From a virus (Duplodnaviria > Heunggongvirae > Uroviricota > Caudoviricetes): 64,000 bases of DNA. The notes under the pieces were generated by a model that did not search any database, was not told the origin of the DNA, and worked only from the letters and a program-made list of their open reading frames with translations. The stretch lies in IMG/VR virus record IMGVR_UViG_3300009537_004349; one strand, written 5' to 3'. How positions within the stretch are numbered: the stretch's first letter is position 1; every line of letters begins with the position of its first letter. The translations under genes and the position numbers were made by a program. Of this stretch, positions 18,644 through 56,012 are shown piece by piece.

Positions 18644-18906
18644 TGTTTCTTACCTCCTCGACGTTTCTTTTTATCTCGTCGCTTTTTCTTTTTAACTGGT
18701 TCTTTCCAAGTTTCCTTGTTATCTTCCCACTTCTTATCAACGCGCAACTTACAATTCTTACATTCTGGCATATCTCTGTAAGAAGGATTCAAGGGACACT
18801 CTTTGTATTCTAATCCATGCCACCACAGAACACTTGACCCAAGAGGACAATAAAATGCACTCTTGGGAGCAGCTATGCCTGATTCGTCTCTGTGGTTATT
18901 GGACAT
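18640..18906 (-). CDS. Cys-containing protein with very basic C-terminal tail
   Basis: CPL..CPL..CKNC and KKKKRRDKKKRRGGKKQ; short overlaps with both neighbours. Confidence 0.6.
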   Translation of the reverse strand: MSNNHRDESGIAAPKSAFYCPLGSSVLWWHGLEYKECPLNPSYRDMPECKNCKLRVDKKWEDNKETWKEPVKKKKRRDKKKRRGGKKQ

Positions 18907-20096
18907 TAATCTGTTCCCATGCCTATAGCGATATATCTGTTTCCGTCAAATATCTTTTTGGCTATCTCTTGAACTTCATCAGCTGTTACGGCATCAATCT
19001 CAGCCATGTAAGCTGAGTCAAAATTCATACCGTAGAAAGCCTCGTGTATCATCATACTTGCTGTAGACCCTGAAGTGTCAAAAGCCCCATATAACGCACT
19101 CTTTAATCTATTCTTTGCTCTCTGTAACTCTTCTTCAGTGGGAGGCTGATTAACTACGCCGTCGACCACATTTAGTATAGCATTTAGCACATCGTCTTTT
19201 TTGTCGGGCTCTGTTTCCGTTTCGATTGTAAATAACGTTCCATCCATCATGTCGTGCCAGGAGGAGTGGATTCCGTATACTAAGCCCAGGTCTTCTCTGA
19301 TTCTTAAGAATAGTTTCGAGTCATCATTTGCGCCAAAGAATGCATTAAAAACTTTGCATGCAGCTCTTTTATTTCTAACTAAGTCGTGTATCTCTTGGCT
19401 TCCATACGAAATACTTACGTTAGTTTGAACCACCCCTTCTTTTTTTATTACGCCTACTATGCCCTCTCCATATTCGACTTTATCAGCAATCGGGGCAAAA
19501 CACAGAACATCATTCGGAACACCTAAATATTTTTCTACCAGATGCTCATGATTATTTCTTGCAACCAGTGTAACCAGCATATGTTCTGTGGTATAAAACT
19601 CTTTATTAAAAGCTACCAAATCTTCTCTGGTAGTATTTCTAACTGTTTCCTCAAATCCTAAAACTGGATACATTAAACCGTTAGAAAATGCCCACTTCAT
19701 TACTTCTTGATATACATTATCGTCTAAGTCATCGTCATATGCTCTAATCTCTTGGCACACAACCTCTCGTTCCTTAACCAGCTCATCCTGTGGGAATGTA
19801 GGATAAACTATGTCGTTCATTGCTTGAAACGCTTCCTCGATTTTTTCGTCTGGGATTGTAATGTGATATGTAGCTATATCCTCAGAAGTCCAGGCGTTCA
19901 TAGACCCGCCATGAAAAGCCACGAATTGTAAGAGTTCTTTCGCGGTTCTATTTGCTTCACCTTTAAATCTCATGTGCTCCATAAAATGAGCTATTCCACA
20001 CGGATAATCCTTTCCAAATTCATTCCTACTCCCGGCCCCATAGGAAACCATTAACGTTGCTAAGCGGCTGGGATGATTACGATATTGATACTTCAT
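18906..20096 (-). CDS. M16 (insulinase/pitrilysin-like) zinc peptidase
   Basis: GAGSRNE, inverted zinc motif HFMEH, NAWTS, LFLRIREDLGLVYGI. Confidence 0.92.
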   Translation of the reverse strand: MKYQYRNHPSRLATLMVSYGAGSRNEFGKDYPCGIAHFMEHMRFKGEANRTAKELLQFVAFHGGSMNAWTSEDIATYHITIPDEKIEEAFQAMNDIVYPTFPQDELVKEREVVCQEIRAYDDDLDDNVYQEVMKWAFSNGLMYPVLGFEETVRNTTREDLVAFNKEFYTTEHMLVTLVARNNHEHLVEKYLGVPNDVLCFAPIADKVEYGEGIVGVIKKEGVVQTNVSISYGSQEIHDLVRNKRAACKVFNAFFGANDDSKLFLRIREDLGLVYGIHSSWHDMMDGTLFTIETETEPDKKDDVLNAILNVVDGVVNQPPTEEELQRAKNRLKSALYGAFDTSGSTASMMIHEAFYGMNFDSAYMAEIDAVTADEVQEIAKKIFDGNRYIAIGMGTD

Positions 20097-20166
20097 AATT
20101 CACCTAATTGCTGAAAAATACATAGACGTAGCTACTAATATAAGGCTGAATATTATTAGTTTTTTA

Positions 20167-20204
20167 GAAAATAGGGCTGTGTAAGCCGCAACCTACACAG
20201 CCCT
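20167..20204 (-). terminator. Intrinsic terminator after groEL
   Basis: AGGGCTGTGTAGG-TTGCGG-CTTACACAGCCCT stem then ATTTTCT. Confidence 0.8.
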
Positions 20205-20234
20205 TGCCCTAAACACCCATAAGGAGTAACGACC

Positions 20235-21896
<1,662 letters not shown>

Positions 21897-23859: not shown

Positions 23860-24183
23860 TCAAAGTGAGAAGCTCTCACCGCAGCTGCAACTTCTTTTAG
23901 CGTTTGGGTTCCTGAATTTGAGTCCGCCATTGAGCAGATTCCTTTCGTAGTATAGTTCAATGTCTTCAAGATACTGATAGCTTTTTGGGTCACAAACAAC
24001 CGTTAAGTCTTCTATCTCAAGCTTAACGTCATTCTCTTTAACCGCATCATCAAAACGAAGCACATAGTTTAGCCCACTACATCCACCACCCTGTACACCA
24101 ATACGAAGAACGCCATTAGAGCGCCCTTCTTTTTCCATAAGTTGCTTGGCTTTAATAGCGGCTTCTGATGTTACTGTAAACAA
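23860..24183 (-). CDS. iscA: IscA/HesB A-type Fe-S carrier protein
   Basis: LRIGVQGGGCSGLNY and FRNPNAKRSCSCGESF with all three conserved Cys. Confidence 0.95.
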   Translation of the reverse strand: MFTVTSEAAIKAKQLMEKEGRSNGVLRIGVQGGGCSGLNYVLRFDDAVKENDVKLEIEDLTVVCDPKSYQYLEDIELYYERNLLNGGLKFRNPNAKRSCSCGESFSL

Positions 24184-24416
24184 AACTCAATCCCCATATC
24201 TTCAAGTCTTAGATTATTCTTCTTAGACGCACCAACATATGGATTGTGTGAATACCAAATTTCCCCGTACTCTAATCTAAAGGGCAACTCTTTTTTTAAA
24301 CCAAAGTAATATGCAGAGTATACTTCTACAGCGGGAGGGTTATCAATCCGCTCTACCTTTTTCATCAGTGAGCGTCTTAGATTGTATTGTGTTTTTCTTT
24401 TCATCGTTTTCCCCAT
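24171..24416 (-). CDS. Hypothetical protein
   Basis: ORF in tiled run. Confidence 0.5.
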   Translation of the reverse strand: MGKTMKRKTQYNLRRSLMKKVERIDNPPAVEVYSAYYFGLKKELPFRLEYGEIWYSHNPYVGASKKNNLRLEDMGIEFCLQ

Positions 24417-24658
24417 GGGTCGCAGTGAACATATTTAACACCCATATCACGCAATACGAAAAAGGTCATATGTGCTGTTTTTTCTTCTTCAGATTCGTGC
24501 TCTGTGGCATAAAACGCTCCCTCAATATAAGCGAACTGCGTTGGTCTTATATTGTGCTTAAGTATGGCTTTGTATGCACGATAGATAGATAAATCTACAT
24601 CAGAGTTCAAAGGGGAGTTTGCCAACCACGGCTTCTTCTTTGGAACGTGTGATTTCAT
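24401..24658 (-). CDS. Hypothetical protein
   Basis: 1-bp overlap with aceA stop. Confidence 0.55.
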   Translation of the reverse strand: MKSHVPKKKPWLANSPLNSDVDLSIYRAYKAILKHNIRPTQFAYIEGAFYATEHESEEEKTAHMTFFVLRDMGVKYVHCDPWGKR

Positions 24659-25968
24659 TAGTGTTCGTCAAACTGGTCAGCAGTTGACCCTTTCATTGCT
24701 AGAGTTGAATCTTCTTTGGACACTGCTTGCGCTACCTTGTCGAAATAACCCGTACCAACCTCGCGCTGGTGTTCGGTAGCAGTATAGCCCAAGTCCTTAT
24801 TGGAGAACTCACGCTCTTGCAATTCAGAATACGCAGCCATCTGACGGTCTTTGTATCCTAATGCAAGCTCAAACATACTATTGTTAAGAGCATGAAATCC
24901 AGCAAGAGTAATGAATTGAAACTTGAAGCCCATAGCTGCAAGTTCACGCTGAAATTTAGCAATCGTTGCGTCATCTAAATTCTTCTTCCAGTTAAATGAT
25001 GGTGAGCAGTTATACGCCAGCATTTGGTCTGGGTATACTGCATGTATTCCTTCTGCAAATCTTCGTGCTTCTTCTAGGTCGGGCTTAGAAGTCTCACACC
25101 ATAGCAAATCAGCATATGGGGCGTACTGAAGTCCACGGTTAATAGCCATGTCGAGACCGCCAGTGATACGATAGAAACCTTCTGCAGTTTGCTCATAATC
25201 TTCCGTTTCGTTTTCTTGACCCTCACCCAAAATATGAGTTTTTAGAAACGGATAATCTTCCTTATCTACATAGTTAGTCAATAGTCGTGCAGCGTTTGCA
25301 TCAGTTCTTGCGATAATCAGAGTAGGCGTTCCCATTACATCAGCAGCTAGGCGAGCTGCTACTAACTTCTTGATAAACTCAGAGCCGGGAACCAAAACCT
25401 TTCCGCCCAAGTGACCACACTTCTTAGCGGACGACAACTGGTCCTCAAAGTGAACACAAGCAGCACCAGCCTTAATCATAGCCTTCATCAGCTCGAATGC
25501 ATTAAGGGTGCCACCAAAACCAGCCTCCGCATCAGCAACAATGGGAGCGAACCAATCACGGTCACGCTTGCCCTCTGACCACTCGATTTCATCTGCTCGG
25601 CGAAGGGTTTTGTTAAGACTCTCAACTAGACGAGGAACTGATTGAACTGAGTAAAGCGATTGGTCTGGATACATTTGACCATCAACATTTGCGTCTGCAG
25701 CTACTTGCCACCCAGAACAATAAATGGCACGAAGACCAGCCTTAACCATTTGCATAGCCTGGTTGCCTGTTAGAGCACCAAGAGCATTTACCCACCCATC
25801 TTCCTGTAGAGCATTCCAGAATTTTTCTGCGGTATGCTTTGCTACAGTATGCTCTTCTGGCAAAGAGCCTCGTAGGTTTATTACTTCCTCCGCTGTGTAT
25901 GGCCGCGTAACGCCTTTCCATCTGGGGTTAGTTTCCCAGTCTTTAGTTAGTTGTTCTGCTGTGGTCAT
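24658..25968 (-). CDS. aceA: Isocitrate lyase
   Basis: [30 protein letters not shown], catalytic [44 protein letters not shown]. Confidence 0.98.
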
Positions 25969-26348
25969 TTATATTTCCCCATATATATTTTGTATAGCTC
26001 ATCGAATCTTAAAAGCGGAGCTATGTTATACAATATTATTTTCCAACAAGGTATGAACCGTGGTCCCTTAGTATTTCCTTTGAGAAACATAAAAAAGATG
26101 CCATTATCAGCTCCCGATATAGACAAATCCCCTAGTGCTATATCATATAGATAAATATGGTACAAAAACTTACATATATCTTTATCAGTCATATCTTTTC
26201 TAAATTTTCGCAATCTAGATACGGGGGGGTTTTTAGGTACAGGTAGTAATTTGTATATTCCATACATCATGCTCAAAATGAGTCTTCTCATACGCAAAAT
26301 ATGTTTCCTACTCCAGACTTTAAGCTCTATTCTCAGCTCATACATCAT
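25965..26348 (-). CDS. Hypothetical AT-rich protein
   Basis: 4-bp overlaps at both ends. Confidence 0.55.
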
Positions 26349-27133
26349 ATTCTTTTCTTTGCTAAATCACAATATTCTTTACTAATATCTATCCCTAAAT
26401 ATTTTCGACCCAGTTCTTTGGCAACTTTGCACGTAGTACCAGAACCAACCATGGGGTCAAAAACAACATCACCTTTGTTTGTCCAAGTCTTCACATGGTC
26501 TTCAACTAATGCCTCAGGAAATGTAGCGGGATGTTTGTATGCTTCTTTATCTGATTGTCCGAACCCACCACTAACAACATAACGCCATATGTTGTTACGA
26601 GGACTAAACTTTGGAACAGGCTTAAAGTCAGCTTTCTTTTTTAGGGAGCCATCTTTCTGTCGATCTGTCTTCTCACCCCAGTTAGTATGTCCTGCCCACT
26701 TGTTTTCTTTGTCGCAAATTAGATTTGCTGTTTTAGGTTTGCCCTTACTAAAAACAAACATGTACTCGAATATCTGAGTGTATCTGCTTCCATTACGACG
26801 TGCAGGAAATGACGATGTATTCTTTTCAAATATCATTGTGTCGTGAAGATTAAAGCCACCTTTCATAAAAGCAAGAGCCTGTTTGAAACTTGTGCCTGTC
26901 TCGCTGCCCTTTTGAACAGCATCTCCAACAACCCACACTACTACACCGCCTGGCTTCATAACTTTGTACAAGCCAGCGATGATTTTCTCTACGTCGAACT
27001 TATAGCCCTTGTAGTCTCTTAGGTTGTCATAGGGAGGACTGGTGACCACAAGGTCAACGCAATCATCAGGCATATTGGCCATCACGTCAACACAATCGCC
27101 ATGTATGATTTGGTTTGTTTTTAGATTAGTCAT
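26345..27133 (-). CDS. N4-cytosine/N6-adenine DNA methyltransferase (beta class)
   Basis: DLVVTSPPY catalytic motif, HPATFPEAL, VFDPMVGSGTT SAM-binding motif. Confidence 0.95.
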   Translation of the reverse strand: MTNLKTNQIIHGDCVDVMANMPDDCVDLVVTSPPYDNLRDYKGYKFDVEKIIAGLYKVMKPGGVVVWVVGDAVQKGSETGTSFKQALAFMKGGFNLHDTMIFEKNTSSFPARRNGSRYTQIFEYMFVFSKGKPKTANLICDKENKWAGHTNWGEKTDRQKDGSLKKKADFKPVPKFSPRNNIWRYVVSGGFGQSDKEAYKHPATFPEALVEDHVKTWTNKGDVVFDPMVGSGTTCKVAKELGRKYLGIDISKEYCDLAKKRI

Positions 27134-27690
27134 TTAACAACTATTCCTGTTGCCTTAAGAAACTTTTTTTGGTCTACTAGCTTTTCATATTTGAGATATT
27201 TTGAATCGAAAAGCTGAAATTCTTTTACAAGATATCCTACAGCTGCCCTACCATTGGGCCCGTCTGGCCATGGATCACCACCAGGAACACCTCTTTTAAA
27301 AGCTCTTGACCTGACCAGCTCTATGTAATCAGAAGTTTGCCACACTCCAAATCTAGCTTTTCCTGGATGAACTTTACTTAAAACTATTTTAGCCCAATAG
27401 TCTGCGGTGGTCACAGTTATACCAGAATCCTTTCCCCACGCCCAAGTTTCTACATAACAGTTACCAGTATTTCTACATAGTAAATCCATTTTCCATTCGA
27501 CAGTAGGACACGAATTAGCTGTTTTAACAATATGGTCAAACTCTTTATGATTTCCTTCTATCCATTCTATTTCACGCACCTCTTCATCTAATACTTTAGA
27601 GAATATCTTTTTATCTATGTTATTAGCCTGAAGGAATGCTTTTAGTTTGCCTTCTTCTTCTAAATCTTTTCTAAAATTCTTGTGTCCCAT
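27130..27690 (-). CDS. PD-(D/E)xK-like nuclease
   Basis: EFD...VEWKMD..TGNCYVE..GKDSGITVTTADYW resembles the phage EVKxD..TGN..IE..SGI..TxADYW family. Confidence 0.6.
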   Translation of the reverse strand: MGHKNFRKDLEEEGKLKAFLQANNIDKKIFSKVLDEEVREIEWIEGNHKEFDHIVKTANSCPTVEWKMDLLCRNTGNCYVETWAWGKDSGITVTTADYWAKIVLSKVHPGKARFGVWQTSDYIELVRSRAFKRGVPGGDPWPDGPNGRAAVGYLVKEFQLFDSKYLKYEKLVDQKKFLKATGIVVK

Positions 27691-27693
27691 GTT

Positions 27694-29256
27694 TTACTCC
27701 AAGTGTTTGTATGCTACACTTGACATAAACGGAGGACAATCATTAGCCGTAACCATCTCAACAAGAAGTTCTGCTGCTAGTTCAACTGACTCTTTCTTAT
27801 AGTCTTCGCTCGACAAGCGTGTAGCTTGTTGTCTTATTATATTGGTTAGTCGTTCCTTAGTCAAGAACTTATTGTTGCTAATCTTAACCTTATGCTTAGC
27901 CCACTGCCATAGTTGAGCCCTTGATATTTCAGCAGTAGCGAGGTCTTCCATTAAGTTGTGTATAGGCACACAACCCAAGCCCTCTAGCCAAGAAATCATA
28001 TAACGTAGACAAACAAGAACATTTACTAACACTCCACCGTCAGTTATTTGAGCCACGTTTTCATAATGCGGCACCCTAAGTAAGTCGGACTGAGTAATCA
28101 CCACATCATCTACAACACCTATTTGATTATCTTCAGTTAGTCCACCCTCTCGTAAATGGTTTCGTGCTACTTCAACCAAACCAGGATGTGCTACCCAAGT
28201 ACCATCATGTCCCAATACAGCTTCCCTGTGTTTATCGTTTGCTACTTTCGCTATAGCAAGTCCGTTAGAGTTGTCTTTGGTAGGTATGTACGCTGACATA
28301 CCACCCATAGCATGAATACCACGACGATGACAGGTTTGTATTAACAGCTTAGCATATGATTCCATCATGTGCGTATCCATCCTTATCAAATCTCTGTCGG
28401 GATAGACAAACTGCTTGTGCTTACCAAGACACTTAATAGCTGAGAATATATAGTCCCAGCGTCCTGCATTAAGACCTGCAGAATAAGCCTGCAAGTTATA
28501 TAGGATTTCATTCATCTGAAATACGGCTGGAAGTGTCTCGATAAGAACGGTGGCTCTAATAGTCCCCTTCTTAATACCGAGCTTACTTTCTGCAAACCTA
28601 AATACCAAAACCCAAAGCCAAGCCTCTTTATGATGCTCGATTTTGGGCAAATAAAAAGCGGGTGTTTCTCCCCGCTGGATTTGTGTTTTCGCATTGTGGA
28701 AAAAGAAAAGACCAAAGTCAAAAACGGATGCTGATATTGGCTCACCGTTTACTATGCAATTCTTCTCTTCTAGGTGCCAACCTCTAGGACGAACCATGAG
28801 CTTGGCTACACTATCGTTTAGTTTGTAGTGCTTCTTTTCGGTCTTGAGTTCGATTGTGCGATTAACTGCATCACGGAGATTGACTTGTCCATCCATACAG
28901 TTTTCCCAAGTAGGACTGTTGGAATCTTCAAAGTCCGCCATAAAACAATCTGCGCCACTATTGAGTGCATTAATTATCATTTTACGGTCGACGGGTCCAG
29001 TTATCTCTACATGCCTGCGCAACATGTCTTCTGGAATATCTGCTACCTTCCAGGCATGGTCTCGAATATGAGATGTTTCAGGGAGAAAGTTAGGAAGTTG
29101 TCCTTTGTCGAATTTGTTTTGTTGTATCTTGCGAGCGCTTAAGGTATTTGGTCTTTCCATCCTTAGCATATCATGCATTTGCTCTATGAAACTAAGTGCC
29201 TCTGGGGTTAGAATTTCTTCGTAACCCTCTTTCATCTTTCCTTTAATCTCTATCAT
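27694..29256 (-). CDS. aceB: Malate synthase A
   Basis: VEITGP, MADFED, MVRPRGWHL, LIETLPA, GLNAGRWDYIFS, GHDGTWVAHP, LMEDLATAEISR. Confidence 0.97.
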   Translation of the reverse strand: MIEIKGKMKEGYEEILTPEALSFIEQMHDMLRMERPNTLSARKIQQNKFDKGQLPNFLPETSHIRDHAWKVADIPEDMLRRHVEITGPVDRKMIINALNSGADCFMADFEDSNSPTWENCMDGQVNLRDAVNRTIELKTEKKHYKLNDSVAKLMVRPRGWHLEEKNCIVNGEPISASVFDFGLFFFHNAKTQIQRGETPAFYLPKIEHHKEAWLWVLVFRFAESKLGIKKGTIRATVLIETLPAVFQMNEILYNLQAYSAGLNAGRWDYIFSAIKCLGKHKQFVYPDRDLIRMDTHMMESYAKLLIQTCHRRGIHAMGGMSAYIPTKDNSNGLAIAKVANDKHREAVLGHDGTWVAHPGLVEVARNHLREGGLTEDNQIGVVDDVVITQSDLLRVPHYENVAQITDGGVLVNVLVCLRYMISWLEGLGCVPIHNLMEDLATAEISRAQLWQWAKHKVKISNNKFLTKERLTNIIRQQATRLSSEDYKKESVELAAELLVEMVTANDCPPFMSSVAYKHLE

Positions 29257-29513
29257 GTCTTCCTCTTTTTGTAGTGACTACATGTCAGCATTGTCTTAGT
29301 ATGCTTAGACAGCATATACCCATATCCCTTGCTTCCAGACATAGAGCATTTTGGGCATAGTGGTTGCTCCTCGAACATATGTCTTATGTACATCGCTTGC
29401 ACCATAATATCTATCTTAGACTTTGGCAATCCATTCAGATAGTATTTTTCAAACGAGTACTTTCTGCTGGCTCTCTTCTTCCTCGTCGCCTTCTTTTTGA
29501 ATCTTCGTGACAT
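29253..29513 (-). CDS. Hypothetical basic protein with CxxC
   Basis: 4-bp overlap with aceB start; CPKC. Confidence 0.5.
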   Translation of the reverse strand: MSRRFKKKATRKKRASRKYSFEKYYLNGLPKSKIDIMVQAMYIRHMFEEQPLCPKCSMSGSKGYGYMLSKHTKTMLTCSHYKKRKT

Positions 29514-29799
29514 AATTCATTACTGCCAATCTGATGGCATTTACCATCATGATTCCCAAGTGAACATCTTTTTCACTTCTTATGAAATCATCGCACTCAT
29601 GTTCAGCTGCATCTTCTATAGACAACCCAACAATCATATTTATGCTATCGACAACCTGTTCAGAATCGAATGGCCCAAAATGCCGATAGTTTATTTTCTC
29701 TATTACACCATCTTCGTCTATATCCAAAGTCAACTTCAATACATCTCTGGACCTCGTAGAGCATACGAGAGCGCTTCCTGTATCAAACGCAAAAGGCAT
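29449..29799 (-). CDS. IscU/NifU-N-like protein lacking the cluster-ligating cysteines
   Basis: DVLKLTLDIDEDGVIEKINYRHFG and VGLSIEDA..DVHLGIMMVNAIRLAVMNY follow the IscU pattern, but the C37/C63/C106-equivalent positions are S/P/L. Confidence 0.6.
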   Translation of the reverse strand: MPFAFDTGSALVCSTRSRDVLKLTLDIDEDGVIEKINYRHFGPFDSEQVVDSINMIVGLSIEDAAEHECDDFIRSEKDVHLGIMMVNAIRLAVMNYVTKIQKEGDEEEESQQKVLV

Positions 29800-29808
29800 A
29801 GTGCCTCC

Positions 29809-30444
29809 TTAGTGGGTTCTTTCAATCCACTGAAATGTGCCCGGAATGGAGCGCCTGGTCTCATCTACCTCATACGACAGTATGCATCCGTCCGAATAGT
29901 AACGATAAACTAAATGCTCTTCCACAAATTCTTCTTTGAACTTGTAATCTCCCTTGTGCCCATTCCAATCAAAAACAGGTGTGGGATATTGCGCATGTGC
30001 TGTAGGGATAAACTCTATGTTGTCTGCCTCAGATAGTATCCATTTCCACACGCCCTTAAGCTCTTTTTTGTCTACAGTAGCAACTATCTTACCAACGGGA
30101 ATAATGTCAAACTCATTTTGAATCTCCCTGATAGAGAGCACAACTTTGCCCTCAGCAATCTCTGCAACCATAGGGTCTTCAATCAAAACTAGTCTGCTAA
30201 AATCATACTGATTGTTCTCTACCTTTAGACGCATGGCAAAAGGACTTTGTAAAGCAACACCAGTATCCTTCTGCTCCTCATATTGACCGGCTACATATGC
30301 TCCGCCCAAACAAGAGCTAAATAGAGTAAATAGCCATATCACCGTAGTGTACTTGAGCTTTTTAACGATTTGGAATAATTGTCCCAGAGTCAAAACTTTC
30401 ACATTATTGAGTACTTCTGAGAACTCTTTCTCATTCTCTGCCAT
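29809..30444 (-). CDS. Hypothetical membrane-anchored protein
   Basis: Hydrophobic segment TTVIWLFTLFSSCLGGAYVAG. Confidence 0.6.
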   Translation of the reverse strand: MAENEKEFSEVLNNVKVLTLGQLFQIVKKLKYTTVIWLFTLFSSCLGGAYVAGQYEEQKDTGVALQSPFAMRLKVENNQYDFSRLVLIEDPMVAEIAEGKVVLSIREIQNEFDIIPVGKIVATVDKKELKGVWKWILSEADNIEFIPTAHAQYPTPVFDWNGHKGDYKFKEEFVEEHLVYRYYSDGCILSYEVDETRRSIPGTFQWIERTH

Positions 30445-39425: not shown

Positions 39426-39798
39426 TCCCCTTTAGCACTCTCAGTACTCGTTCGTCAATCATCTCCAAGCTTTCTTCATCCTCAGCCTTTTTTGTTAGTG
39501 CATCTATAGCTGCGCGCACAAACTTATCAAAGTTGCTGCTCTTCTCATAGATACCGATGCGCTCATGGGAGATAGTAATATCTTCTCCTAGAAAACCATC
39601 AGATTCTAGCACATCTAATTCTGAAGTCTCATCAAGAATTTCTCTAACATCCCAGGACATATCGTGCCTCAAATATGCTATGATATCATTCTTGTTCTCT
39701 CCCTTGTTGAAGAAGTGCACCACTACTAAATCCAGTGACGGATTATAGTAGCTAGCAAAAGCTAAATTGGAAATTTTCTGTACCAAATCAAGGTCCAT
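39361..39798 (-). CDS. Hypothetical acidic protein
   Basis: 145-aa ORF. Confidence 0.6.
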   Translation of the reverse strand: MDLDLVQKISNLAFASYYNPSLDLVVVHFFNKGENKNDIIAYLRHDMSWDVREILDETSELDVLESDGFLGEDITISHERIGIYEKSSNFDKFVRAAIDALTKKAEDEESLEMIDERVLRVLKGNAYDSGKEAGLFVSKTTKHLN

Positions 39799-40642
39799 TC
39801 TGTACCTCTCTAAGTTGTTTGATTGCGGAATTGTATCCTCTCATTACCAATGTGTCATACGCCATAGTATTGAGGGCTGAAATATCTCCAACGGGTGGGG
39901 ATATCAGAACTATCTGCCTATCGGGATATCTGGATTGACAGATGCTAATTCCTCGTTGGGACTTATCTCCTAAAAGCATATTAGTAATCTGTGATCCAAT
40001 ATTCCACATACTGGATTGCCCTATTCCTTTTACATATGGCGAATATATGTCAGATACGATAACTACTTCAGCGCCTAAATCCATAGCTTCGTTTACAGAC
40101 AGTGGTCTTTTTATCTCGCCATCTACATAGAATTCACCATTTATCTCAACTGGCCTAAACAAAACAGGCACACAGCAGCTTGCTGTGATAGCTTTAGAGA
40201 TAGATATATGGTCATTCTTTTTTGGACCAATCAGCATACCCTCATGTCTATCTAGATTAGTCACAGATACATACGTGGGAATGGGCAATTCATTAAAGTT
40301 GTTTACTGGCAAGTTACTTGCCAAGAACCTCTCAGCATAATCCAAATCAAAAATTCCGCTCTTGATTTTTGTGCTAAAAAAGTTCCTAAATGTCATCATG
40401 CGTTTCCAGCCAAAAGCAGGAAAATCATATTTGCGCTTCCAAAATGGACGGAAGTTATCTACAATTCTATCCGTATCTTTGTATATGCTATACAGCACAA
40501 CCCCTATAGCGCCCGCAGATGTTCCTAACATCAGGTCAAATTTGATTCCCATTTTTTCGCAGGCACGAATAACTCCTGCGTGGGCAATAGCTCTACCGCC
40601 GCCACCTGTAGCGACGAGAGCCACTTTTTTATTCTCGAACAT
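39788..40642 (-). CDS. Patatin-like phospholipase
   Basis: GGGGRAIAH oxyanion loop, GTSAG nucleophile, ASCCVPVLF, YVDG. Confidence 0.92.
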   Translation of the reverse strand: MFENKKVALVATGGGGRAIAHAGVIRACEKMGIKFDLMLGTSAGAIGVVLYSIYKDTDRIVDNFRPFWKRKYDFPAFGWKRMMTFRNFFSTKIKSGIFDLDYAERFLASNLPVNNFNELPIPTYVSVTNLDRHEGMLIGPKKNDHISISKAITASCCVPVLFRPVEINGEFYVDGEIKRPLSVNEAMDLGAEVVIVSDIYSPYVKGIGQSSMWNIGSQITNMLLGDKSQRGISICQSRYPDRQIVLISPPVGDISALNTMAYDTLVMRGYNSAIKQLREVQNGP

Positions 40643-52501: not shown

Positions 52502-53322
52502 TATAGCTTCCTAAATGTGATGTTCTCCAATTTTGATTTGCAGAACATGCAAGTTGCCCAAATTAAAGCCTTTGCATTCCATGTGTGCTTGAAGTCTTCT
52601 TCTGCGTGAATTTTAGTACTGTTTAAGGTAAGACTATACTGACCGCATACAGCGCAATCATAGTCTATTGTAACCGTACTCTCTGTATCCAGCTTACTAA
52701 AATACTTATGAGCCTCACATACTGCCGAAACTCTATCCTTATGTCTCAATGACGAACCGAATAGCAGCGGCTCTATAGCATCGGCGTTTATGTTCTTGAA
52801 AATGTTATACCCGACATGTTTGTTATCTAACAATGCCTCTATTACCTTTAGCCTGGTTACTGTGGGCACTTTAAGTAGCGCCTCATATCGAGGAGTATAG
52901 TTGTTATGATACAAAGATGCAGGGCATGCAGAGTAAAAGGATAAACCTCTCAAGCCAGCCACTTCCTCTTCAATTGAGATTTTTGGAAAGCTTAATATCA
53001 TTCGGTGTAGTCGGCTGTTCTCACAGGACAACAACATGCTCTTTAGCTTATCTAGACCAAAATCAAGACAGAAGCTAAGCATCTTATCTACATATTCATC
53101 TCTACCAAAATCTCTACTACTTCCGTGCTTAATAAAAGCTTTGAACAGTCTTTCTCTTCTTTGATAGATTTCGCCATCCATTAGGCCGGTTATGGCATTT
53201 GTGTATGCCCAGCTATCTCCGTCTGCTGTCTCTACCTCTCTAAGCAGCGCCTCTTGCGAATGGATGTCTAACTTTTTCCAATCACGCAATTTATTACGCA
53301 AATCCCAACCGAACTTAGCCAT
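52501..53322 (-). CDS. Unannotated helical protein, paralog family member 5, with C-terminal CxxC pair
   Basis: AGLRGL...LLKVPTVTRLKVIEALL...NADAIEPLLFGSSLRHKDRVSAVCEAH; then CAVC..CMFC. Confidence 0.75.
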   Translation of the reverse strand: MAKFGWDLRNKLRDWKKLDIHSQEALLREVETADGDSWAYTNAITGLMDGEIYQRRERLFKAFIKHGSSRDFGRDEYVDKMLSFCLDFGLDKLKSMLLSCENSRLHRMILSFPKISIEEEVAGLRGLSFYSACPASLYHNNYTPRYEALLKVPTVTRLKVIEALLDNKHVGYNIFKNINADAIEPLLFGSSLRHKDRVSAVCEAHKYFSKLDTESTVTIDYDCAVCGQYSLTLNSTKIHAEEDFKHTWNAKALIWATCMFCKSKLENITFRKL

Positions 53323-54089
53323 TACTTATATCCTAAATATGTTGTGCATACGAACGTGTGTGGCAGTTTAGATAGAATTTGCATATCCATATCTACATGC
53401 CAAGGTGTACGAACAGCCTTGGTGCCATCGTCCAATTCTATTTCTTTAGTAATCCTGTAACAGGATATACCTCTCTTAAACTTTGTAGGATAATCGTTCC
53501 AGTTTATCCCTGCCTTCTGGAATAGTAGCTCCTGCTGTTGGTCTTGATTTAGACCATGCATAAGTTTTCGTGCTGTGCCCTTACCGACCACCTTGCCTAC
53601 TTCATAGTAACAAGCAGCAGATATACTGTTTTTGGTGGCATCGTTTTGCCGCCATATCAAACAATTAATTGCTTCGGATACGGCGGGTACAGCAAATACT
53701 CTGGCATCAAAGTAAGCCAGACGACCAGACATCTTGGAATTAAAGTGCGCAGTAACCATTGAAGACACTACGCTGGCCATTTTCTGTGTGCGATTTCCGA
53801 ACCACGGCTCTGACTCATTCGACTGGTCATTCCTTAATATGAAGGTCATCTCATCGGATTGTGTGTATCCGAACACACAACCCTCAATATTAGCTGCTGC
53901 CTCTTGCATAGTCCAAGCCATGGCATTAGATAGATTCTCATCAAATGGTTTTTGGAGCTTCATGCCCTTGGTCCACTTAGAGAAACCTTTGCCATCGCAA
54001 CGAACTATAACTGGAACTCTGCGCATGATAGCTGTATCATATACACTCTCATATGCTTTCATACGGTCGCCGAGTGTTGTCTTATCCAT
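53322..54089 (-). CDS. tRNA(His) guanylyltransferase Thg1-like (3'-5' polymerase)
   Basis: VRCDGKGFSK, YTQSDEMT, FDARVF, WRQNDATKNSI. Confidence 0.93.
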   Translation of the reverse strand: MDKTTLGDRMKAYESVYDTAIMRRVPVIVRCDGKGFSKWTKGMKLQKPFDENLSNAMAWTMQEAAANIEGCVFGYTQSDEMTFILRNDQSNESEPWFGNRTQKMASVVSSMVTAHFNSKMSGRLAYFDARVFAVPAVSEAINCLIWRQNDATKNSISAACYYEVGKVVGKGTARKLMHGLNQDQQQELLFQKAGINWNDYPTKFKRGISCYRITKEIELDDGTKAVRTPWHVDMDMQILSKLPHTFVCTTYLGYK

Positions 54090-54091
54090 GA

Positions 54092-54988
54092 TTAAATCTT
54101 TCTCGTGACTATCTCGTTCTCAGAGCCATAGTAAGCTCCCCATTCCAAATCATATTGTCGAATAGGATAGCCGAACTTCTTATGAGGTTTAGAAGATAGA
54201 AAGGGCACGTCTGTGATTAGAATAACATAGCAGTCAGAATTCTTCAGCTTACCAGTAATTCTACCAGTATATGGCCCCACCTTTATGGTGTCCATATATG
54301 ACGTAGGGCCGTCTGTATTTGCCGCCTGCCCAAATCCTTTTTCTTGATACTTCTTTATTCTGTTCTGAAATCTACCCTGCTTTCGCTTAACCTCGGCGTT
54401 TCTAATCAATCGCTTGGTCAACAGGTCTAGAACTCCAAATCTAGACATATAGATGTTTTCACAATCTACAGCAAATTGACATACTCTAATATCAAATCTT
54501 CGAATATTTTCAACAGGGTCTCCATAAGGATTAAGTCGAATCGTGTCGTATCCTTGAGATATGTTCCACTCACCTCCGCCGATAAGTTGAATCACCATGC
54601 CTTCATCTGAGTTGTTTAGTTTCTTGAATGGCTGGCCGCCGTAGTGGCCATTGCTAGAGCCCATCTCTTCAAAGCCGTAAGAGGATATAAAGGACTCGAA
54701 GGCGTGGAATGCTCCCTCGGTCGCAAAAAAGAAATCGATATCGTTATTAGTATGCTCCTGCCAAACCCAATTCATTACTGCACCACCAGCTATATGAATG
54801 TTGTAACTGGTTAACCAGTGAAGAGGAATGTCTTCCAGGTCCATGCAAGTTTTGAAATCTTCGTAATTGACTTTTATCAGCTCGTTCTTTCTGGGATAAT
54901 GAACTGATACAGGCGTATCCATATCGTATATAACTTTGCCTGGCTTCACTAAACTAAGAAGATAATTGGCTTGTTCTGCATTTATCAT
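54092..54988 (-). CDS. CCA-adding/poly(A) polymerase head-like nucleotidyltransferase
   Basis: IAGGAV..NDIDFFF, IQLI, RRFDIRVCQFA, RIKKYQEKGF. Confidence 0.65.
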   Translation of the reverse strand: MINAEQANYLLSLVKPGKVIYDMDTPVSVHYPRKNELIKVNYEDFKTCMDLEDIPLHWLTSYNIHIAGGAVMNWVWQEHTNNDIDFFFATEGAFHAFESFISSYGFEEMGSSNGHYGGQPFKKLNNSDEGMVIQLIGGGEWNISQGYDTIRLNPYGDPVENIRRFDIRVCQFAVDCENIYMSRFGVLDLLTKRLIRNAEVKRKQGRFQNRIKKYQEKGFGQAANTDGPTSYMDTIKVGPYTGRITGKLKNSDCYVILITDVPFLSSKPHKKFGYPIRQYDLEWGAYYGSENEIVTRKI

Positions 54989-55188
54989 AGCTGGTCTTTC
55001 ACTAGTTCATGTTCGATATTTTTCTTTAGGGCCTCTATGCCCTTCAGAAGAGTGTGCAGATTGTTTCTTTCGACCTGTAGCATCTTATGTTCACAACACT
55101 CTGGCTCTCCAAAAACCTCAATCTGTTTTTCAGTTGGAGCATCCATTGTGTCGCCACAATATACACAAATCATCATTGGGTCAATCAT
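54985..55188 (-). CDS. Small Cys-containing protein
   Basis: CVYC..ECC; 4-bp overlap. Confidence 0.55.
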   Translation of the reverse strand: MIDPMMICVYCGDTMDAPTEKQIEVFGEPECCEHKMLQVERNNLHTLLKGIEALKKNIEHELVKDQL

Positions 55189-55342
55189 TGTTCTTATACC
55201 TTTGCCAAAACTCTCTCCACTCGTCAGAGCGGCTGTTTATAAGAGGCTTAAAGACCTCAAACATCTTACGAATAGAGGCCCTGTCTTTTTCTACGTGTAA
55301 CTTTTCTTTGTTGAACATATAAAAGTACAGGGCCTCTATCAT
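55181..55342 (-). CDS. Small hypothetical protein, 53 aa (below cutoff)
   Basis: MIEALYFYMFNKEKLHVEKDRASIRKMF...; fills the gap. Confidence 0.5.
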   Translation of the reverse strand: MIEALYFYMFNKEKLHVEKDRASIRKMFEVFKPLINSRSDEWREFWQRYKNND

Positions 55343-55343
55343 T

Positions 55344-56012
55344 TCATTTGATAATTTCATTCGGAGTCACTGGACGGTTCATCCAATGTCCCTCGTTGTC
55401 CATAAACTTTTGGAACTCTGAACGGACTACTTTACCGCGCATACCTTTCTTATGATTCCAAACCACAATACCCTCAGCCATAGTGGAGCCATAATTAGAT
55501 ACGTCTGGAATCATATCAAATAATTCCATTCTATCCACATAGCCCTGATGAAGCAAAGGTACAGTGTGAAACCCTATGTTGTCACAAAGAGTTTTCATCT
55601 CATCCCATTTGTAATATCTATTACTCCCCTTGTTTAACCAAGCGAATGCAAGAAAGTAATCTGGGAGACGGTCATAAAAAATCGTATGTTTAGCGTACAT
55701 AAGTTCGCCGTACAAAACAGTTCCCTTAGGAATCTGCATGATTTTGTCGTAGTTCTGATACGACCACGCCTTAAAGAAATTGAATTGGGCGTGCTCACTA
55801 TCTCCTACCAATGACCCTCTTTTTTGAAGATGAAATGTGTCTCTATAACGAACTATACCAACATTGGCTCCATCCATTTTTTCAGTAATGGTAACCTTGC
55901 CATTCAAAAGCTGTTGGCATTCTTTCTTAGAAAGATAATGCTTTCCTTTTATGTCGATTTGAGGGACTAAAATCCTGAATGTCTTCTCATATTTTCTAAA
56001 CATGTTGTCCAC
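55344..56012 (-). CDS. ATP-dependent RNA ligase family protein
   Basis: ITEKMDGAN, LYGE, FLAF, TVPLL, EGIVV, KVVRSEF. Confidence 0.88.
   Translation of the reverse strand: MDNMFRKYEKTFRILVPQIDIKGKHYLSKKECQQLLNGKVTITEKMDGANVGIVRYRDTFHLQKRGSLVGDSEHAQFNFFKAWSYQNYDKIMQIPKGTVLYGELMYAKHTIFYDRLPDYFLAFAWLNKGSNRYYKWDEMKTLCDNIGFHTVPLLHQGYVDRMELFDMIPDVSNYGSTMAEGIVVWNHKKGMRGKVVRSEFQKFMDNEGHWMNRPVTPNEIIK

Follow-up and report, generated by a model that had tools for sequence, protein, structure and literature searches.

Results

Isocitrate lyase and malate synthase A genes in a probable huge tailed phage

A 64,000-nucleotide (nt) stretch of the tailed-phage record IMGVR_UViG_3300009537_004349 (Caudoviricetes, IMG/VR), hereafter the window, encodes both enzymes of the glyoxylate shunt, isocitrate lyase (ICL, aceA-type) and malate synthase (MS, aceB-type). 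Together these enzymes turn isocitrate and acetyl-CoA into succinate and malate, bypassing two decarboxylations of the tricarboxylic acid (TCA) cycle and the NADH that they yield. The ICL-bearing contig is 291,701 bp long according to its protein database record, and our overall reading is that a huge, uncultivated tailed phage of ~292 kb probably carries its own functional ICL and MS A, set in a packed string of accessory genes. The evidence supports both enzymes being phage-encoded and full length, and from their sequences they look active. A phage ICL and MS pair is already documented; what we describe here is a separate huge-phage clade in which a conserved spacer of three genes parts the two. 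Because the shunt pair has already been published in phages, the window is one more verified case rather than a discovery and opens no new question. The recurrent closeness of an IscA-type iron-sulfur (Fe-S) gene to ICL in phages is a possible lead, and the sole one that we consider worth following.

The ICL gene occupies positions 24658-25968 on the minus strand and encodes 436 amino acids (aa). In NCBIfam profile searches the protein scored 720.4 bits against NF011645, above the equivalog cut-off of 562, and 563 bits against TIGR01346 (cut-off 276), and the Pfam ICL family matched the same open reading frame (ORF) with an E-value of 1e-99. Methylisocitrate lyase models gave 97 bits, far under their cut-off of 354, and models of phosphoenolpyruvate (PEP) mutase were likewise far under theirs. 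PDB structure 3i4e aligns to residues 4-432, and 6lrp likewise aligns along the full length of the protein; the KKCGH loop, residues 182-186, falls on the same motif in both structures and is kept by all members of the phage clade. Of the 212 columns with at least 97% conservation among 80 cellular ICLs, the window protein is identical in 197. Some of the mismatches are conservative and some are not, with several grouped around a short insertion at ~243-256. The matching columns include S85, G86, W87, D102, D146, E148, H173, E175, R221, N320, S322, S324, and T354, taken as metal- and substrate-binding positions by analogy with M. tuberculosis ICL1, and the active-site columns are unchanged throughout the viral clade. 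The ORF is therefore a full-length isocitrate lyase, with activity predicted from these residues.

The MS gene lies upstream on the coding strand (27694-29256, minus strand, 520 aa), with a ribosome-binding site, AGAGGA, ahead of its ATG. Its product scored 661.4 bits against TIGR01344, above the equivalog cut-off of 594.5, and just 24-25 bits against malate synthase G models, placing it in the A form. The domains follow the order MS_N (PF20656), TIM barrel (PF01274), and MS_C (PF20659), each above its Pfam cut-off, and PDB structures 3cux and 3cuz align to the protein end to end. The RPRG motif sits at residues 156-159 and MED at 436-438; R156 and R158 of RPRG, E240 (in IETL), D268 (in GRWD), and D438 (in MED-x-ATAEISR) align to the same residues in both structures. 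We take these to be the catalytic arginine and aspartate and the Mg ligands, by analogy with the E. coli malate synthase A structures 3cuz and 3cv1. Across 33 cellular MS sequences, the window protein is identical in 93 of the 98 columns conserved to at least 97%. This ORF, too, is a full-length enzyme, malate synthase A, and is predicted to be active.

Among phage relatives, R156, R158, E240, D268, and D438 are invariant even where overall MS identity drops to 56-59%. The invariance of the catalytic residues of both ICL and MS in divergent phage relatives indicates purifying selection on catalysis. The initial annotation of the window had described ICL as full length with KKCGH intact and MS as full length with RPRG and MED intact. 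For ICL the NF011645 score, the 3i4e alignment, and the motif at 182-186 bear this out, and for MS the TIGR01344 score, the three domains, and the 3cux and 3cuz alignments do the same.

Arrangement of the accessory gene string

Five minus-strand ORFs fill the span 24658-29256, and MS is parted from ICL by ~1.7 kb holding three of them. The expected E. coli-like aceB-aceA arrangement thus held for the order, with aceB first, but not for adjacency, because ORFs at 27130-27690, 26345-27133, and 25965-26348 intervene. The whole string runs in one direction, with all flanking genes on the minus strand, in the order IscU-like gene, small ORF (orf86), MS, PD-(D/E)XK-like ORF (orfX), methyltransferase, variable small ORF (orfY), ICL, two small ORFs (the first of 85 aa), and IscA. 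From orf86 through the 85-aa ORF the successive junctions are -4, +3, -4, -4, -4, and -1 nt. The simplest reading of the layout is an ancestral adjacent aceBA pair split by inserted accessory genes.

Directly after MS comes orfX (27130-27690, minus strand, 186 aa), a virus-specific ORF possibly encoding a PD-(D/E)XK-type nuclease. Its closest Atlas clusters are viral, and the structural matches include the PD-(D/E)XK (PF11645) and NOV_C families at template modelling (TM) scores of 0.5-0.7; D52 and E65-x-K67 are invariant in three homologues. An AlphaFold model of orfX had a mean confidence (pLDDT) of 64, and a Foldseek search of that model against PDB returned nothing at an E-value of 0.001 or below, the best match being MepB (4lqe, E-value 0.025). 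The ORF, a neighbour of the methyltransferase gene, may encode a nuclease; we treat this as a lead, the PD-(D/E)XK reading being unconfirmed by our own model. The methyltransferase itself (26345-27133, minus strand, 262 aa) is of the N6/N4 DNA type (Pfam N6_N4_Mtase, E-value 1e-46). It is ~90% identical across lineages in which MS is 58-75% and orfX 29-67% identical, and it also has more identical codons in common with its counterparts in two relatives (L082:12122-12913 and L084:12192-12977) than the flanking genes do. Together, this identity and the shared codons suggest that the gene was exchanged recently between phages or is under very strong constraint.

The third intervening ORF, orfY (25965-26348, minus strand, 127 aa), is a questionable small ORF whose slot varies in content. 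It matched no Pfam or PHROGs family, its Atlas entry had a pLDDT of 0.44 with no usable Atlas match, and its codon usage is atypical, so orfY may be no real gene. The same slot ahead of ICL holds an unrelated lysine-rich ORF of 156 aa in L082 (12910-13380) and one of 159 aa on a contig from run SRR29850986.

Upstream of MS, orf86 (29253-29513, minus strand, 86 aa) overlaps the MS start by 4 nt; it matched no family in Pfam or PHROGs and is conserved in part in L082 and L083. Beyond it lies a NifU_N/IscU-like ORF (29449-29799, minus strand) that is 72% conserved in the same two contigs, although its Pfam NifU_N score of 23.3 bits is barely above the cut-off of 22. On the other side of ICL, two small minus-strand ORFs of 85 and 81 aa (24171-24658; junctions -1, -16, and -13 nt) separate it from the IscA-type Fe-S carrier gene. 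Neither matched a PHROGs family, and the 85-aa ORF also had no Pfam match. The IscA gene (23860-24183, minus strand; Pfam Fe-S_biosyn, E-value 6e-18; phrog_17776, E-value 3e-33) lies ~470 nt downstream of ICL and belongs to the same string. A conserved 211-aa ORF further upstream (29809-30444) gave no usable match in an Atlas search. A promoter and terminator scan of 22-32 kb performed near chance level and was uninformative.

The initial annotation had reported no aceK in the window, and a survey of the ORFs of at least 400 aa agrees: across the 64 kb, these are all fibre, GroEL, helicase, HNH endonuclease, ligase, ICL, or MS genes. The ORFs downstream of ICL, at 85, 81, and 107 aa, are not AceK-sized.

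Phage context and relatives

Every ORF of at least 150 aa in the window lies on the minus strand, save two that sit inside longer minus-strand genes. Three giant proteins of 1515-2185 aa have tail-fibre matches, and the C-terminus of the largest resembles the distal subunit of the T4 long tail fibre. The window also encodes a Dda-like helicase, an HNH endonuclease, an ATP-dependent DNA ligase, a phage-type GroEL, a nucleotidyltransferase, a tRNA-His guanylyltransferase, an RNA ligase, and a DNA polymerase exonuclease subunit, along with three tRNA genes. The GC content at third codon positions (GC3) is 0.384 for ICL and 0.378 for MS, within the 0.25-0.58 of neighbouring phage genes and with no compositional seam, and codon usage of both enzyme genes is also within the neighbours' range. 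A megablast search of positions 1-25000 against GenBank phages gave no match, suggesting that the phage has no close cultured relative.

Contigs assembled from five other runs, which make up three lineages, share the flanking synteny. The recurrent order is helicase, HSP20, methionine aminopeptidase (MetAP), deformylase, the conserved 211-aa ORF, MS, orfX, and methyltransferase. Only one contig extends to the ICL position, and on it the methyltransferase is followed by a small ORF and ICL; in two lineages the contig stops short of that position. Two of the Logan contigs, L082 (37.2 kb) and L084 (36.2 kb), stop just past the methyltransferase, ahead of the expected ICL, possibly because assembly broke off at ICL, a highly conserved gene. 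The closest ICLs are 80% and 77% identical to that of the window and the closest MSs 75% and 58-59%, all of them from phage-like contigs with the recurrent synteny. MS evolves faster than ICL in this clade, at 58% versus 80% identity for the same contig pair. Given the one-strand layout, the fibre and replication genes, the tight junctions, the GC3 values, and this recurrent synteny, the initial view that the two genes are embedded among phage genes is supported.

In IMG/VR, at least 107 stretches encode ICL; 80 of these loci were examined with their flanks. MS was sought by tblastn in those flanks, a single-protein MS scan of IMG/VR having given nothing. It lies directly upstream of ICL in 15 of the 80 loci, answering the proposed check for co-occurrence of aceA and aceB, and in the other 65 none occurs within 10 kb. 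A T4-type Gp23 capsid gene is present in four of the IMG/VR aceBA records, and in two loci (L078 and L077) DnaB-like helicase, ribonucleotide reductase, or DNA polymerase genes surround the aceBA pair. Most of the matches that ICL and MS gave in the phage collection proved to be unannotated fragments or contigs from bacterial whole-genome shotgun (WGS) records, among them AGRM01000005.1, AFYI01000007.1, OR850939.1, and OR845679.1, which are Salmonella WGS contigs or short pieces lacking annotation that carry enterobacterial aceBA. These were rejected as cases of phage carriage; such records would inflate counts of phage shunt genes.

In the ICL tree (FastTree), the window and two relatives form a clade with support of 99 whose sister is one of the IMG/VR aceBA clades. 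Taken together, the two make a group of 15 ICL sequences that also has support of 99 and contains no cellular genome; a second viral aceBA clade falls elsewhere. The window clade has support of 100 in the MS tree (IQ-TREE), where all 18 viral sequences lie on one side of a branch with support of 79. The closest cellular ICLs, from Burkholderiales, Xanthomonadales, Bacillales, Ktedonobacteria, Terriglobales, and Deinococcus, are just 64-67% identical, and neither tree names a cellular donor. We read these results as a sign that large phages have long passed the aceBA pair among themselves. Most likely, the pair in the window descends from such a circulating aceBA unit and was later split in this clade.

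Further genes of interest lie elsewhere in the window. Positions 53322-56012 hold more tRNA-related content, namely the gene for the Thg1-like tRNA-His guanylyltransferase (phrog_4717, E-value 2e-71) and the RNA ligase-like gene. Between the shunt region, which it directly follows, and the fibre genes, an M16 (insulinase-type) peptidase gene adjoins the phage-type GroEL gene (18906-21860). The ORF at 39788-40642 encodes a patatin-like phospholipase (Pfam E-value 6e-30), with a counterpart of 56% identity in a related contig (L084:34-909).

Discussion

Proposed function and alternatives

Expression, enzyme activity, and a selected benefit are what we infer for the pair. ICL made during infection would cleave host isocitrate to succinate and glyoxylate, and MS would join the glyoxylate to acetyl-CoA to give malate. 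The shunt would thereby add, or strengthen, a route around the two TCA steps that release CO2 and yield NADH. An infected cell would go on making four-carbon acids (oxaloacetate, aspartate, PEP) from acetyl units, and it would depend less on the iron-rich respiratory chain. The purpose put forward in the initial annotation, the redirection of acetyl-CoA toward nucleotide synthesis, is plausible, and iron or respiration sparing fits equally well. One possible benefit is a net supply of four-carbon compounds for aspartate, pyrimidines, and gluconeogenesis. Another possible benefit is a lower demand on the iron-rich respiratory chain, for which the IscU-like and IscA genes at the two ends of the string offer some local support. 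We can also speculate that acetyl units come from lipids, with the patatin-like phospholipase as a source of fatty acids and acetyl-CoA. Virus-borne central-carbon genes alter how an infected cell processes carbon, and each verified case refines models of viral reprogramming.

Several points weigh against a functional shunt pair in a huge tailed phage. No capsid, portal, or terminase gene lies within the 64-kb window, and the viral assignment therefore rests on the fibre genes, the replication genes, and synteny. Nor does the window encode AceK or anything else that would evidently draw isocitrate away from host isocitrate dehydrogenase; with no AceK, flux diversion would have to rest on enzyme dosage. 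The ICL tree was built with FastTree only, and the pattern search biased cellular sampling to Pseudomonadota and Bacillota, so that a cellular relative could still fall inside the viral clade. A window with no capsid or terminase gene is also what would be seen if the pair were bacterial DNA, present through chimerism in the assembly or through mis-binning of a host fragment, and many of the "phage" database matches for ICL and MS are in fact bacterial contigs, the Salmonella WGS records being an example. However, the flanking synteny recurs in assemblies of five other runs, the string has 4-nt overlaps with phage-type neighbours and a composition that matches phage genes, and cellular ICLs reach at most 67% identity as opposed to 77-80% for relatives in phage context. 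We consider a bacterial source of this kind highly improbable.

Two other explanations accept the pair as viral and differ over what it is for. Nishimura et al. proposed a host-fitness role for the TARA viral genome that they described (PMC5332604), and the pair in the window could likewise be a module of lysogenic or pseudolysogenic conversion that helps the carrier cell grow on two-carbon or fatty-acid carbon, not a lytic booster. Genes for long-term maintenance of the cell are frequent in the region (GroEL, HSP20, deformylase, MetAP, and the Fe-S carrier), and IMG/VR classes two related ICL-bearing records as proviruses. Those "provirus" records, however, hold T4-type capsid genes, and T4-type phages are typically lytic. 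The scanned ORFs of the 64 kb include no integrase or repressor, and no attachment site was noticed there; on balance we find a host-fitness module unlikely. The enzymes could instead serve a non-shunt purpose, with ICL supplying glyoxylate and succinate (for glycine, serine, and purines) or acting on methylisocitrate, and MS removing toxic glyoxylate. ICL is far commoner than MS in phages, with 98 versus 22 genes in one preprint (10.1101/2025.02.27.640493) and 65 of our 80 IMG/VR loci having no MS within 10 kb, so ICL alone seems useful; the much faster evolution of MS within the clade (58% versus 80%) points the same way. Yet the methylisocitrate lyase models scored 97 bits against a cut-off of 354, every MS catalytic residue that was checked is kept over deep divergence, and both genes are retained jointly in the clade, so that we think a non-shunt purpose quite unlikely. 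A phage-encoded, working glyoxylate shunt remains our preferred reading.

Proximity of Fe-S genes to ICL

An IscA-type gene lies within 4 kb of ICL in the window clade and in seven of the 80 IMG/VR ICL loci, the latter spread over two clades of the ICL tree; in a third clade (L017 and L018) the gene is within ~6 kb. The genes concerned are at L077:7456-7788, L081:6424-6762, L065:7383-7724, L021:3522-3896, L023:403-744, L024/L026:9602-9943, and L017/L018:3503-3970. None of 80 cellular ICL loci has an IscA-type gene nearby, which against seven of 80 viral loci gives a Fisher p of 0.014, the loci being non-independent. This closeness may merely reflect the clustering of accessory genes.

Marine heterotrophs induce the glyoxylate shunt under iron limitation (PMC6618146). 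Tentatively, and with the odds against it, we hypothesize that the phage shunt genes are part of an iron-sparing, Fe-S-maintenance module and not simply a carbon module. If so, the phage would safeguard the supply of isocitrate by way of aconitase, an Fe-S enzyme, and would steer carbon around the steps that yield NADH; this would parallel how marine heterotrophs respond when iron is limiting.

Comparison with known systems

The initial annotation considered a paired shunt to be rarely reported for bacteriophages, which does not hold. The aceA and aceB genes (aceAB) were found in Pacific Ocean viromes in 2013 (PMC4053976), an aceBA operon followed in 2017, from a complete marine viral genome of 179 kb that also has T4-like structural genes (PMC5332604), and a 2025 preprint on huge phages lists 98 ICL and 22 MS genes (bioRxiv 10.1101/2025.02.27.640493); the 15 paired loci among our 80 from IMG/VR add to these. 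The 2017 genome, TARA_ERS478052_N000008 (Nishimura et al., PMC5332604), resembles the window in being that of a large uncultivated tailed phage with both enzymes, aceB followed by aceA, and no aceK. Its genes form an adjacent operon, whereas those in the window are parted by three ORFs (1.7 kb). The nearest ICL relatives outside the window clade are on the IMG/VR contigs that combine an adjacent aceBA pair with a T4-type capsid gene, and the window shares ~69% identity in ICL and ~50-54% in MS with the IMG/VR aceBA group.

The Huge Phage Genome Collection (10.1101/2025.02.27.640493) comprises phages of at least 200 kb that, like the window, carry ICL and sometimes MS, read there as auxiliary genes of the glyoxylate cycle. 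The window differs in that its two genes stand three genes apart, an arrangement conserved in its clade. A further point of reference is phage C48C1 (OQ984149, Kyanoviridae, 156 kb), which encodes a full-length ICL homologue of 53.6% identity annotated as hypothetical, with a NifU-like Fe-S gene 3 kb upstream. A tblastn search of C48C1 found no malate synthase, and in the tree its ICL forms a long branch apart from the window clade.

With the E. coli aceBAK operon the window shares the A rather than the G form of malate synthase, the short bacterial type of ICL, the gene order, and the catalytic residues; unlike that operon, it has no aceK and its two genes are non-adjacent. Amino-acid identity to the enterobacterial copies is ~59% for ICL and ~47% for MS. 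Set beside these systems, the clade of the window shows that the pair can be kept with intact catalytic residues down to 56-59% MS identity, and that the two genes need not stay adjacent.

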